Below are positions 18,866-59,124 of a stretch of DNA of 64,000 nt, one piece after another. Below the pieces are notes generated by a model. The model saw only the letters and a list, made by a program, of their open reading frames with translations, searched no databases and was not told the DNA's origin. The stretch is taken from the sequence record NC_010105.1. The stretch is one strand, 5' to 3'. How positions within the stretch are numbered: the stretch's first letter is position 1; each line of letters begins with the position of its first letter. Source of the DNA: Escherichia phage JS98. The translations under genes and the position numbers were made by a program.

Positions 18866-18889
18866 TTTGTTCTCCAAGTTGATAGGTCT

Positions 18890-18918
18890 ATAGTATCATG
18901 CCTACAGGAGAAGTAAAC
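18890..18918 (-). promoter_or_regulatory. early promoter (GTTTAC-N17-TACTAT)
   Basis: atagta 18890-18895, gtaaac 18913-18918. Confidence 0.6.
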
Positions 18919-48219: not shown

Positions 48220-49215
48220 TTATTTCAGAAGGGTAACTTCAGCGATTTCGCTCCAGTCATTTTTATCGGTGGCAATGAAGTCCGCCAGATAAAGAGCTGT
48301 ACGTAATGATACGTTACGAAGACGAGATACATTGGCCTTCATCCATGCTAGAGCTTGATAAGTCTCAGCATCAGTCAGACCTCGGTTTTGCATCATATCG
48401 GTGGACAGGATAACGTCTTCAACACGAACCATAATCTCTTCATTCGAGTGAACTCCGAGGTCTAAGTAAACTGAACGAGATACTAAAGCTTGGAGGTGTG
48501 GAGCAAGTTTAGTTCCACGCTCTAATTCACGGTCAATATCAACGTTGGTGATGAACACGATGGTGCCTTCGTATTCGAATTCTTTATCGATATTTTTATC
48601 ATCGAGATAAGAACTTGAAGTGCTCCAGCATACCTTACGTTTCTCACCGGTATCCAATGCCGCTTTCAGAAGGTTCAGGATATCCATGTCAGAGAATACA
48701 TCAACATCATCAATAAGAAGAACACTATTAGGGCCGCGGTTATTCCAAAGTTGCTCGTAAAGACCGATTCCACTAATCTTTCCGTTGATTGATTTATATT
48801 CGATAGTTTCATTTTCGTGGGCATTTTGTAATGCTTTATCCAAAGAGTATGTTTTACCAATACCTGCGGCACCAGAGATGATAAGGGAACGAATTTTACC
48901 ATCGATGATTCCGTTAGTCATCATGTTCATTACTTTAAAACGTTTGTTGATGCGATGTTTCATTTCTTCAGCGGATTCAGTAACCGTTGCAGGTGCTTCA
49001 GCGCCTTCCATTTCAACGTCACATTTGAACACCCATACACCACGTTCAACACCATCAATCTGCACGAATACCTTGCCGTCACCGAGGTGAGCTTCAGATT
49101 CATGAATTTTATTAGGGAACCAGGTTTTACCTGAACTCATGAACGTACCAGAGATTTCATTACCGCGATAGATACCTTTGTTGATTTTGATAGTTAACAT
49201 TTTATTCTCCTTCAC
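48220..49215 (-). CDS. AAA+/P-loop ATPase
   Basis: 331 aa; Walker A SGAAGIGKT, Walker B VLLIDDVD. Confidence 0.55.
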   Translation of the reverse strand: MKENKMLTIKINKGIYRGNEISGTFMSSGKTWFPNKIHESEAHLGDGKVFVQIDGVERGVWVFKCDVEMEGAEAPATVTESAEEMKHRINKRFKVMNMMTNGIIDGKIRSLIISGAAGIGKTYSLDKALQNAHENETIEYKSINGKISGIGLYEQLWNNRGPNSVLLIDDVDVFSDMDILNLLKAALDTGEKRKVCWSTSSSYLDDKNIDKEFEYEGTIVFITNVDIDRELERGTKLAPHLQALVSRSVYLDLGVHSNEEIMVRVEDVILSTDMMQNRGLTDAETYQALAWMKANVSRLRNVSLRTALYLADFIATDKNDWSEIAEVTLLK

Positions 49216-49235
49216 TCAGTAGATTTGATAGGTCT

Positions 49236-49264
49236 ATAATAACATGTTTAAAGCAGATGTACAC
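49236..49264 (-). promoter_or_regulatory. promoter-like repeat copy 1 (GTGTAC-N17-TATTAT, overlapping TGCTTTA)
   Basis: 38-bp direct repeat shared with 49538-49575. Confidence 0.4.
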
Positions 49265-49266
49265 AC

Positions 49267-49497
49267 TTATTTTGCAATAATTTCACAGAAGCCATCTTTA
49301 TAGCGGGCCCATGTTTCACCATTTACTGTATAAAGAGCAGCTTTACGGCCATTAGGCATAACAACTTGTTTACCTTTGTTTTTAGTTACAGCTTCAATAA
49401 TTTCGTATTCTTCAGCACGATCAGCTTTAAAGGTATCTTCCAGAGCGATCAAGTTAGTAGTGTAAGAACCGTATTTGTAATTTTTGATAGCGTACAT
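49267..49497 (-). CDS. hypothetical protein
   Basis: 76-aa ORF flanked by the two promoter-like repeats. Confidence 0.4.
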   Translation of the reverse strand: MYAIKNYKYGSYTTNLIALEDTFKADRAEEYEIIEAVTKNKGKQVVMPNGRKAALYTVNGETWARYKDGFCEIIAK

Positions 49498-49547
49498 TTT
49501 TATATCTCCGTTTGGTTTAAGTTTTCAGCTCTTTAGCTGATAGGTCT

Positions 49548-49576
49548 ATAATAACATGTTTAAAGCAGATGTACAC
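49548..49576 (-). promoter_or_regulatory. promoter-like repeat copy 2
   Basis: identical 38-bp core to copy 1. Confidence 0.4.
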
Positions 49577-49598
49577 TACTTTTTTGCACTAAACCCAA

Positions 49599-49618
49599 AA
49601 AAGGCCCGAAGGCCTTTT
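49599..49618. terminator. intrinsic terminator (potentially bidirectional)
   Basis: aaaaggcc-cgaa-ggcctttt with A/T runs on both sides. Confidence 0.55.
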
Positions 49619-49619
49619 A

Positions 49620-50630
49620 TCATTTATAATACGAGTTATGGTTTTCTAGGTAAACCTGCTCAACGAACTTGTCCCAGAACTTCATGTCTACCTTATCAGG
49701 CATACCGTTCTTAGCGGCCCAGATAGCATTAGTTTCGACTTCATCAACGATAGCTTCAAGTTCGGCCTGTACATCTTTAAAAGCATGTAGCCCTTGTTTG
49801 ATTTCAAGGATAAATGGTGCTGTTCGTAAAGGATATTGAAGGTCACCGGTCATATAGATTTCCTTCAACTGATATCCAGCACGATAAGCATGGCTCAGAG
49901 CTTTCCAATCAATGCCTTCATTAGCTTCGGCCTTACGAGCACGTTCACCATATTCAGCATCAAGTTTATTCAGAGATTGCTTGAGCTCGATTAATGACAA
50001 AGTAGTTTGGTATTTACGACCTAGAACAGTATAGAACGTTTGAGGACCTGTTTTCTCGTGGTTATGGAACACCCATTCACAGAACTCGTTTTCAGGGAGT
50101 CGGTGCTTAATATCTTCTACCTTAGTACGACGTTGCTTAGTAGAACCATCTTCTTGATAATCAACCCACTGTTCAGGAATCTGGTTAACAATTGCCAGCA
50201 CACCACGTAAAGCGGCCAGTCGAGAACCCTTAACACCATATTTAGAAGCTTGCTTACGGACGTACCCTAAATAGGCTTTCATGTTAGTTGTATAGAAACG
50301 CGAACGGTTATCTTGGATAAATTTCCATACATCAGGTAAATCAGATTTAACCACCATTTCGGGTGGAGTGTGGAGCATATCTAGAGCAACGGTTTCGCCA
50401 TCAGCAGCCAGTTTAAAGAAATATTTCAGACTGTAAAGCTCATGGTCAACATCATCTTTAGTGTTTTTGGAAGCAGTGTTATTCGTGTTCAGGTTGGTAT
50501 GGTTCATAGCCGTACCTAACAGAATATCACGCGGATGCGGAACAAAGATTTCTTTAAAATCGACATCAGATTCCGGAGTACTTGTTCCATAAAGATGGCT
50601 ACCGAAGTAGCCTTTCATAACTGTTCTCAT
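49620..50630 (-). CDS. pol-beta superfamily nucleotidyltransferase-like protein
   Basis: 336 aa; N-terminal GSHLYGTSTPESDVDF (GS...DxD). Confidence 0.5.
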   Translation of the reverse strand: MRTVMKGYFGSHLYGTSTPESDVDFKEIFVPHPRDILLGTAMNHTNLNTNNTASKNTKDDVDHELYSLKYFFKLAADGETVALDMLHTPPEMVVKSDLPDVWKFIQDNRSRFYTTNMKAYLGYVRKQASKYGVKGSRLAALRGVLAIVNQIPEQWVDYQEDGSTKQRRTKVEDIKHRLPENEFCEWVFHNHEKTGPQTFYTVLGRKYQTTLSLIELKQSLNKLDAEYGERARKAEANEGIDWKALSHAYRAGYQLKEIYMTGDLQYPLRTAPFILEIKQGLHAFKDVQAELEAIVDEVETNAIWAAKNGMPDKVDMKFWDKFVEQVYLENHNSYYK

Positions 50631-59068: not shown

Positions 59069-59095
59069 TTTTAATCTCCTGTAGTTGATAGGTCT

Positions 59096-59124
59096 ATAGT
59101 ATCATGCCTACAGGAGAAGTAAAC
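59096..59124 (-). promoter_or_regulatory. early promoter (GTTTAC-N17-TACTAT)
   Basis: upstream of denV. Confidence 0.6.

Follow-up and report, generated by a model that had tools for sequence, protein, structure and literature searches.

Why should a small gene in a T4-like phage lie between two identical stretches of DNA? The question arises in a stretch of 64,000 nucleotides from Escherichia phage JS98 (NC_010105.1), here called the window and numbered from its first letter, in which a sequence-only reading had pointed out a perfect 38-bp direct repeat around an open reading frame (ORF) for a protein of 76 amino acids (ORF76, 49267-49497). That reading saw a promoter-like unit and a MotA-box-like TGCTTTA in each copy, and it suggested either a recent promoter duplication or a recombination-prone cassette carrying a small accessory gene. 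Our analysis indicates that ORF76 very probably belongs to a promoter-bounded cassette in a hypervariable slot between the homologues of nrdC.11 and nrdC.10, that the gene in this slot is probably swapped by recombination within the promoters, and that the pair of promoters has most likely been homogenised.

Extent and copy number of the repeat

The 38-mer GATAGGTCTATAATAACATGTTTAAAGCAGATGTACAC occurs as two exact copies in the window, at 49227-49264 and 49539-49576 (plus-strand coordinates), with a start-to-start distance of 312 bp. This bears out the perfect repeat around ORF76 as first described, with the ORF on the minus strand. No third copy with three or fewer mismatches was found within the window, where shuffled sequences give an expectation of zero. 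A T at 49226 and 49538 extends the identity to 39/39, and about 27 nt of weaker similarity follow beyond the 38-mer on the upstream side of the coding strand, giving 66 nt at 85% identity with one indel allowed.

In this region the window shares 96-98% identity with Escherichia phage JS10 and related phages of the genus Dhakavirus (T4-like Straboviridae), and the repeat pair with ORF76 is also present in the separate genome records of JS10, WG01 and PSD9. The 13 independent carriers of ORF76, comprising the window, seven phage records and five Logan/ENA assemblies, rule out an assembly artefact. The record of vB_EcoM_CUA3 (PP410321.1) was excluded from this count; it is heavily N-masked and its coordinates are exactly those of JS10, which suggests a reference-guided consensus. 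Two ORF76-bearing metagenomic contigs in ENA, k119_277337 (746 nt) and scaffold_283337 (668 nt), start or stop in or beside the promoter-like copies, and the repeat probably breaks short-read assemblies.

A predicted early promoter in each copy

On the coding (minus) strand the repeat reads GTGTACATCTGCTTTAAACATGTTATTATAGACCTATC, and a sigma-70 scan recognizes in both copies the hexamers GTGTAC and TATTAT separated by 17 nt (equally, TGTACA and TATTAT separated by 16 nt) with the extended -10 element TGt. In the distal copy (copy 2, 49539-49576) the -35 GTGTAC lies at 49576-49571, TGt at 49556-49554 and the -10 TATTAT at 49553-49548, with a predicted start near 49541; in the proximal copy (copy 1, 49227-49264) the -35 lies at 49264-49259 and the -10 at 49241-49236, with a predicted start near 49229. 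Copy 2 would drive ORF76 and copy 1 would drive nrdC.10, with predicted leaders of 44 and 29 nt, respectively. An A/T-rich stretch upstream of the -35, which is a feature of promoter-early stem-loop (PeSL) elements, is present at both, copy 1 following TTGCAAAATAAGT and copy 2 following GTGCAAAAAAGTA. Read from the sequence, copy 2 has an A-rich UP-like segment GGGTTTAGTGCAAAAAAGTA on the minus strand at 49577-49592, within the 85% extended repeat, and this segment resembles the TTGCAAAATAAGT that precedes copy 1. The TAA stop codon of ORF76 is only 2 nt upstream of the copy 1 -35.

Alignment places both copies in a larger family. The 3' motif TATAGACCTATC occurs 10 times on the minus strand of the window (12-mer with up to one mismatch, 0.39 expected), and these sites belong to a promoter family of about 10 members, all on that strand, with the consensus GTTTAC-N17-TAYTAT-AGACCTATC or, in detail, GTTTAC(A/T)-N-CATG(A/G)TACTAT-AGACCTATC. 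Most members are followed by a Shine-Dalgarno (SD) sequence and ATG about 15-30 nt downstream, and those at 18881 and 52650 also have a terminator hairpin just upstream. Apart from its twin, the allele at the ORF76 locus is at least six positions away from every other member in the window, with GTGTAC, CTGCTTTAAA and TTATTAT as departures common to the pair, and in JS10 it is found at that locus only. Because the allele is locus-specific, the two copies would derive from each other and are not convergent consensus promoters. With a -35, TGn, -10, A-rich upstream segment, intergenic position and a same-strand gene downstream all present, the repeat is most likely a T4-type early promoter in two copies of one allele, and the promoter-like unit proposed for each copy is supported by this anatomy and the family alignment.

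The MotA-box-like motif

The TGCTTTA motif would instead make the repeat a duplicated MotA-dependent middle promoter, with middle-mode expression of ORF76 and nrdC.10, which we consider very unlikely. Both copies do have this core on the coding strand, where ATC comes before it in place of the three A/T of a MotA box, (a/t)(a/t)(a/t)TGCTTtA. The phage does have middle promoters, since there are 8 matches to the canonical pattern TGCTTYA-N11-13-TANNNT in the window, where 1.7 would be expected; promoter-middle stem-loops (PmSLs) have also been described in phage nt-1 (PMC4122927). However, a MotA box sits 12+/-1 bp upstream of a TAnnnT -10 element (PMC2988021), whereas the core in the repeat lies in the early-promoter spacer, 7 bp before TATTAT and 10 bp before TATAGA, a hexamer without the -7 T. 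No TAnnnT is found 11-13 bp from TGCTTTA in either copy, neither copy is among the 8 canonical matches, and what is found instead is a good -35, a spacer of 16-17 nt and TGn. The motif is also not conserved at orthologous promoters: CCATTTC or CCATTTT replaces it in the proximal copy of 9 of the 13 carriers, and it is absent from every empty-site promoter, where CTCGTAGAG is found. The true middle promoter within the same slot of phages 04086 and ESCO10 looks different (AAATGCTTTA, 12 nt, TACAAT). With the functional strand being the minus strand, we rejected TGCTTTA as a functional MotA box on its spacing and its missing conservation.

Gene content of the nrdC.11-nrdC.10 slot

Among phages 88-98% identical in the flanks, the slot between nrdC.11 and nrdC.10 has at least five alternative contents in Dhakavirus and another in RB69. 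This census of relatives is built from BLAST spans and about 20 inspected loci. In the window, JS10, WG01, PSD9, UP19, EcWhh-1, ABTNLsp5 and Ec2-ASingh, the slot contains a terminator, a promoter, ORF76 and a second promoter. IME08 and LHE83, whose sequences we read, have the terminator and a single promoter with no gene, and about 11 further empty slots are inferred from match spans of about 1089-1098 bp as against 1401; this empty type is shorter by exactly one unit. In IME341 the terminator and promoter A are followed by an unrelated ORF of 84 amino acids (ORF84) and promoter B, the latter with two mismatches to the window repeat. The CLB_P2 type has an extra small ORF after nrdC.11, then the terminator and a single promoter, while 04086 and ESCO10 have the CLB_P2-type small ORF, a middle promoter, a 94-amino-acid ORF with a signal-peptide-like N-terminal segment, a terminator and a promoter. 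AnYang and C6 have an opposite-strand gene for a collagen-like protein of 252 amino acids. In the Mosigvirus members RB69 and SHSML-52-1, a terminator, promoter P1, an unrelated ORF of 72 amino acids and promoter P2 precede nrdC.10. A comparison of ORF76, ORF84 and ORF102c found no mutual similarity.

The frame around these contents is shared. Directly after nrdC.11, the window has an intrinsic-terminator-like hairpin on the minus strand at 49593-49618, AAAAGGCC-UUCG-GGCCUUUU with a U-rich tail, identified by a terminator scan and RNA folding (-16.1 kcal/mol and z -2.9, for the hairpin at 49618-49599); it has a GC-rich stem of 8 bp, a UUCG loop and a U-tract, and lies 22 nt upstream of the copy 2 -35. 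The same or an equivalent hairpin is located before the nrdC.10 promoter in all seven slots read (IME08, LHE83, CLB_P2, IME341, 04086, ESCO10 and RB69). Every slot variant has a family promoter directly upstream of nrdC.10, followed by the common leader AAATCTACTGAGTGAA.GGAGAATA.AATG. Two flanking promoters, seen in IME341 and RB69 too, are a general and old design of the slot. Presence, absence and replacement of the gene among close relatives support the proposal of a recombination-prone cassette with a small accessory gene, and clearly contradict uniform conservation of the bracketed gene without indels.

The opposite-strand gene (2104-2862 of the locus in AnYang, 2104-2859 in C6, and also 1597-2370 in PEi20) has G-x-x repeats and is annotated as 'tail needle knob'. 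It is structural-looking, yet it sits in an early-gene hyperplastic region.

Chimeric promoter junctions

The different cassettes have common ends, AAAATAAGT-GTGTACAT. The 3' end of ORF76 runs from ...GCAAAATAAGT into GTGTACAT, and that of ORF84 from ...CTCAAAATAAGT into the same sequence. The empty-site promoter, in which GTTTACA.CCTCGTAGAGCATG is joined to TTATTATGGACCTATC, equals the 5' half of the upstream promoter and the 3' half of the downstream promoter of IME341. In the same way, the window allele corresponds to the 5' part of RB69 P1 (AAGTAGTGTACAT) combined with the 3' part of RB69 P2 (TGCTTTAAACATGTTATTATAGACCTATC). Chimeric single elements have been predicted for excision and integration by recombination between flanking PeSLs (Arbiol et al., PMC2839356). 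Whichever way the events ran, the alignments suggest that the junctions of insertions, deletions and replacements in the slot fall inside the promoter elements. The existing empty sites carry a promoter allele unlike the one at the ORF76 locus.

Perfect and variant promoter pairs

Comparison of the carriers shows that the perfect pair is the exception. Of the 12 carriers with a readable copy 2, 10 have it at 38/38, the others being ABTNLsp5 with one substitution and Ec2-ASingh with a 2-nt insertion and one substitution. Among the 12 carriers with both copies readable, only four (the window, JS10, WG01 and PSD9) have a perfect pair, and the rest match at 33-35 of 38 positions. Copy 1 reads ATCCATTTCAAAC in eight carriers, with four changes within 6 nt, and ATCCATTTTAAAC in one; Ec2-ASingh has a fifth change near the four. 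In the variant patch CTGCTTT is replaced by CCATTTC, with 4 nt changed in a run of 6, or by CCATTTT, with 3 nt changed; outside the patch, the 419-nt cassette shows 0-3 differences.

Point-mutational divergence fits poorly because the patch is clustered in a near-identical 419-nt module, and short-patch conversion between the copies, or recombination between co-infecting phages, best explains it. The distribution of the variant cuts across flank similarity, with the closest relative, Ec2-ASingh, having the variant pair and the most distant carriers, WG01 and PSD9, the perfect one. The 38/38 identity is probably a derived, minority state that arose by gene conversion of the proximal copy by the distal one or by equivalent recombination. 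Of the recent promoter duplication proposed earlier, the recency holds for the perfect identity, which homogenisation explains best, and not for the two-promoter design, which is old (IME341, RB69).

Divergence of the cassette and its flanks

Variable alignment columns among the carriers amount to 2.6% in ORF76 and 0% in its leader, compared with 8-18% in the genes on either side. When the window is set against the other carriers, synonymous divergence (Nei-Gojobori) is 0-0.063 for ORF76, 0.066-0.18 for nrdC.10 and 0.09-0.27 for nrdC.11, placing ORF76 5-10 times below its flanking genes, and given the flank rate the ORF76 counts have a Poisson P of 2e-4 to 0.02 per pair. In WG01 and PSD9 the near-identical tract extends from about 49211 to about 49694, with one difference in 484 nt in WG01. 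The carriers are not monophyletic on the flanks: in nrdC.10, the non-carriers CLB_P2, AnYang and IME08 are at least as near to the window as the carriers WG01 and PSD9, and CLB_P2 is nearer. The low ORF76 divergence and the non-monophyletic carriers therefore indicate that the cassette was exchanged recently. To judge from these alignments, the module is exchanged among lineages or lost repeatedly, and is not strictly inherited with its flanks.

A stronger form of this idea is that the terminator-promoter-ORF76-promoter module is currently mobile and spreading through Dhakavirus, with the 39-bp homology in the window easing excision of a 312-bp mini-circle. The cassette is near-identical in lineages that differ by 5-8% in the flanks, and we regard this form as conceivable but doubtful. 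If it were true, the spread could reflect a selective benefit of ORF76, for example against host defence, and the locus would be a natural system to measure the rates of gain, loss and transfer, and the homology dependence, of one PeSL cassette.

Proposed mechanism and alternative explanations

In the mechanism that we infer from these observations, host RNA polymerase would start early transcripts at both copies. Copy 2 and the nrdC.11 terminator hairpin would form a PeSL-type terminator-plus-promoter composite that starts the ORF76 transcript, and the terminator would shield the module from upstream transcription. The ORF76 transcript should read into nrdC.10 because there is no terminator after ORF76, and copy 1, abutting the ORF76 stop, would start a second transcript for nrdC.10. 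Recombination within the promoter/terminator elements would insert, delete or swap the slot gene, and the same exchange may take place by mini-circle excision and integration. Since the slot cassettes begin and end in one promoter family, a gene swap should leave the expression of the neighbours undisturbed. Recombination across the 39-bp homology would lose exactly 312 bp, comprising ORF76 and one promoter, and keep the nrdC.10 promoter intact. Recombination in T4 reportedly drops steeply below about 50 bp of homology, so this deletion should be rare but detectable.

Several observations weigh against this explanation. Neither a synthetic 400-nt deletion junction compared with phage records nor an exact junction pattern run against IMG/VR identified a precise excision product, so deletion across the perfect repeat is predicted and not observed. 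ORF76-family genes hold the same slot in other genera, and vertical inheritance with losses explains part of the slot pattern, and our census of that pattern falls short of a full reconstruction that takes phylogeny into account. Upstream of copy 1 there is no stem-loop (RNA fold z +0.8), so this copy makes up just one half of a canonical PeSL. In WG01 the tract of low divergence reaches about 75 nt into nrdC.11; at least on this side, ordinary homology in the flanks, and not the promoter, could have served for the exchange. Finally, the window contains a second perfect 38/38 pair of the promoter family, GTTTACTTCTCCTGTAGGCATGATACTATAGACCTATC, at 18881-18918 and 59087-59124 (elements on the minus strand), about 40.2 kb apart and with unrelated flanks. 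Perfect identity between family members is not exclusive to the ORF76 locus, and it can arise or persist in the family without local duplication. Recombination between the 18881 and 59087 copies would remove 40 kb.

This second pair, the high conservation of the family even in its spacer, and the entry of the WG01 tract into nrdC.11 would all suit an explanation in which identity reflects selection for an optimal promoter, the repeat has no role in gene gain or loss, and the slot varies by recombination in the flanking genes. We find this unlikely: the joint departures of the ORF76 pair from all other members leave no convergence on a consensus, the allele is unique to its locus in JS10, the slot promoter alleles are mosaics with junctions inside the promoter, three unrelated genes each have family members on both sides in matching positions, and what separates perfect from imperfect pairs is a cluster of 4 nt and not a scatter of substitutions. 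A one-off tandem duplication or illegitimate insertion could alternatively have made the repeat and ORF76 in a recent ancestor of the JS10 lineage, with the perfect pair original and the 34/38 state later. A perfect direct repeat around an insert is indeed the classic footprint of recombination at a duplicated site, and the cassette has diverged very little. Gradual divergence, however, is a misfit with four differences in 6 nt against 0-3 in the remainder of the cassette; the variant is the majority state (9/13) and includes the closest phage, with the perfect pair in the most distant ones; the two-promoter layout around a small ORF predates Dhakavirus, as RB69 shows; and ORF76 homologues were already in the slot of other genera, all of which makes a single recent event quite unlikely. 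Direct repeats around a gene that is present in some relatives and absent from others could also mark an autonomous mobile element, such as a transposon or homing-endonuclease cassette, as its terminal repeat or target-site duplication. This is extremely unlikely, as the 312-bp unit encodes only the 76-amino-acid protein with no signature of a nuclease, transposase or integrase, the 'repeat' is a functional-looking promoter common to about 10 other sites, and the empty sites do not have a single copy of the same sequence. Exchange of a promoter-bounded cassette, with homogenised promoters, accounts best for the data.

The locus is a compact natural example of how T4-like phages could swap small accessory genes without breaking gene expression. 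The slot has at least six alternative contents over two genera, and its cassettes are bounded by one early-promoter family with junctions visible inside the promoters. In practical terms, the analysis points to a gene missing from the annotation of the JS10 reference records, and to a 312-bp unit that could be tracked for loss in therapeutic Dhakavirus stocks. Its significance would be greater only if ORF76 has a selectable function behind its spread, or if the perfect pair proves tractable for measuring excision.

ORF76 and the flanking genes

ORF76 starts with ATG and was taken from the ORF list with a match to phrog_33156 (E 2e-18). The protein is 100% identical across the carriers, with six variable nucleotide sites that are all synonymous. 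Homologues with 37-55% identity are found in Kagamiyamavirus EcS1, Kanagawavirus PEi20, Serratia phage 92A1 and Karamvirus CC31, all lying between nrdC.11 and nrdC.10, and the family has 17 invariant positions centred on V.MPNGRKA..F.VG.EVWARY.DG. ORF76 is evidently a real gene. It is complete when measured against its Serratia and CC31 counterparts, while EcS1 and PEi20 carry an extra C-terminal extension of 60 amino acids; truncation of ORF76 by the promoter was considered and rejected, as the Serratia and CC31 homologues stop at the same position. A tblastn search of phage records for ORF76 outside its slot found as nearest non-Dhakavirus homologue one that is 54% identical and in the same slot, and exact-pattern scans of IMG/VR and JGI metagenomes gave no match. 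An exact-protein lookup returned nine contigs, of which four are already known records and five are new assemblies; the context is the same in every one. ORF76 is annotated in WG01, PSD9, UP19, EcWhh-1 and ABTNLsp5 and unannotated in the JS10 records NC_012741.1 and EU863409.1 (record positions 48529-48759).

Pfam has no family for ORF76, and the PHROG families matched have no assigned function. In a word-index homology search the only match was ORF76 itself, and an exhaustive search gave 13 matches, among them weak ones to repeats inside large RCC1-like proteins, too little for assigning a function. HMMER matches of the conserved core, residues ~31-64, to repeated units of very large proteins are weak but significant, and one such protein is an RCC1-repeat / Listeria-Bacteroides-repeat protein. 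The core may be a single beta-hairpin or blade-like unit. A single-sequence AlphaFold model has a predicted local distance difference test score (pLDDT) of 49.7 and is unusable. The first 8-9 codons of nrdC.10 (MLTIKINK, 49177-49203) and ORF76 (MYAIKNYK, 49474-49500) share 78% DNA identity over 27 nt, with a spacing of 297 bp that is out of register with the 312-bp promoter repeat; this is probably chance in AT-rich sequence. YAI(K/R)N is a conserved motif of the ORF76 family.

The 5' end of the ORF76 leader has a small predicted hairpin, UCAGCUAAAGAGCUGA, on the minus strand at 49525-49540 (RNA fold -7.6 kcal/mol, z -3.05), and the SD sequence GGAG of ORF76 lies at 49509-49506, 8 nt before the ATG. 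That of nrdC.10, AAGGAG, is at 49212-49207, 6 nt before its ATG. The upstream anchor of the slot on the minus strand is the nrdC.11 homologue (49620-50630, 336 amino acids), assigned to the RlaP-family nucleotidyltransferases by PF10127 (E 1.6e-10; described in Pfam as 'RNA repair pathway DNA polymerase beta family'), phrog_388 and the JS10 annotation. The downstream anchor, also on the minus strand, is the nrdC.10 homologue (48220-49200, 326 amino acids), assigned as an AAA/STAND-like nucleoside triphosphatase by phrog_1250 (E 2.5e-163), weak AAA matches and the JS10 annotation, and it has in addition a weak helix-turn-helix match. The order nrdC.11-nrdC.10 is constant in all five T4-like genera inspected. 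In IME08 (1021-2088 of the locus), AnYang and CLB_P2 (1021-2040), nrdC.10 is annotated with an N-terminal extension (1068 or 1020 as against 981 nt) that runs through the leader into the promoter; these are probably mis-called start codons. The ORF list of the window includes an alternative upstream GTG for nrdC.10 at 49215.

Comparison with known promoter cassettes

T4 early promoters have been described as 'UP/-35/TGn/-10' with conserved positions beyond the host consensus (Hinton 2010, PMC2988021). The repeat resembles them in its -35, TGn, -10, A-rich upstream segment and additional conserved positions; it differs in that the -35 of this allele is GTGTAC, one substitution from the family GTTTAC, and its activity is here a prediction. 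With T4 middle promoters and the PmSLs of nt-1, the repeat shares the TGCTTTA core of the MotA box, but its -10 spacing is 7 bp and conservation of the motif is missing at the orthologous promoter.

The closest precedents are the PeSLs, and the ORF76 locus, which has most of their defining traits, is a new example of this known type of gene shuffling, matching the model of Arbiol 2010 and Comeau 2014 and revealing no new mechanism. In RB49 and phi1, for example, ORFan192 lies between two PeSLs (Arbiol et al. 2010, PMC2839356). Both systems have a sigma-70-type early promoter, an A/T-rich upstream region that includes the previous stop codon, an SD sequence and ATG on the 3' side, an attached terminator stem-loop (here at copy 2 only) and a location in a hyperplastic region, and in both an ORFan lies between two elements in one phage with a single chimeric element in a close relative. 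In contrast to RB49 and phi1, the phages here are Dhakavirus, the -35 is GTTTAC or GTGTAC and not TTGACA, and the stem-loop is a separate upstream terminator and not embedded in the promoter, with none at copy 1. The flanking copies here are also perfectly identical, and mini-circles are a prediction at the present locus.

In T4 and PST, stem-loops are placed immediately upstream of the promoter, and the PeSL consensus is TTTACW..TAYWAT (Comeau, Arbiol & Krisch 2014, PMC4122927). The present elements agree in promoter consensus class and stem-loop position, and in both cases cassettes are exchanged at one site in close relatives (ndd.4/.5 versus ORF268/269 there). Neither of the two PeSL papers (PMC2839356, PMC4122927) deals with the nrdC.10-nrdC.11 slot, and the JS98/JS10 group comes up in them only through a brief reference to JS98 near gene 43. 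What the ORF76 locus adds to the published accounts is synonymous-site evidence for a cassette much younger than its flanking genes, and allelic evidence, in the form of short conversion patches, for homogenisation of the flanking promoters.

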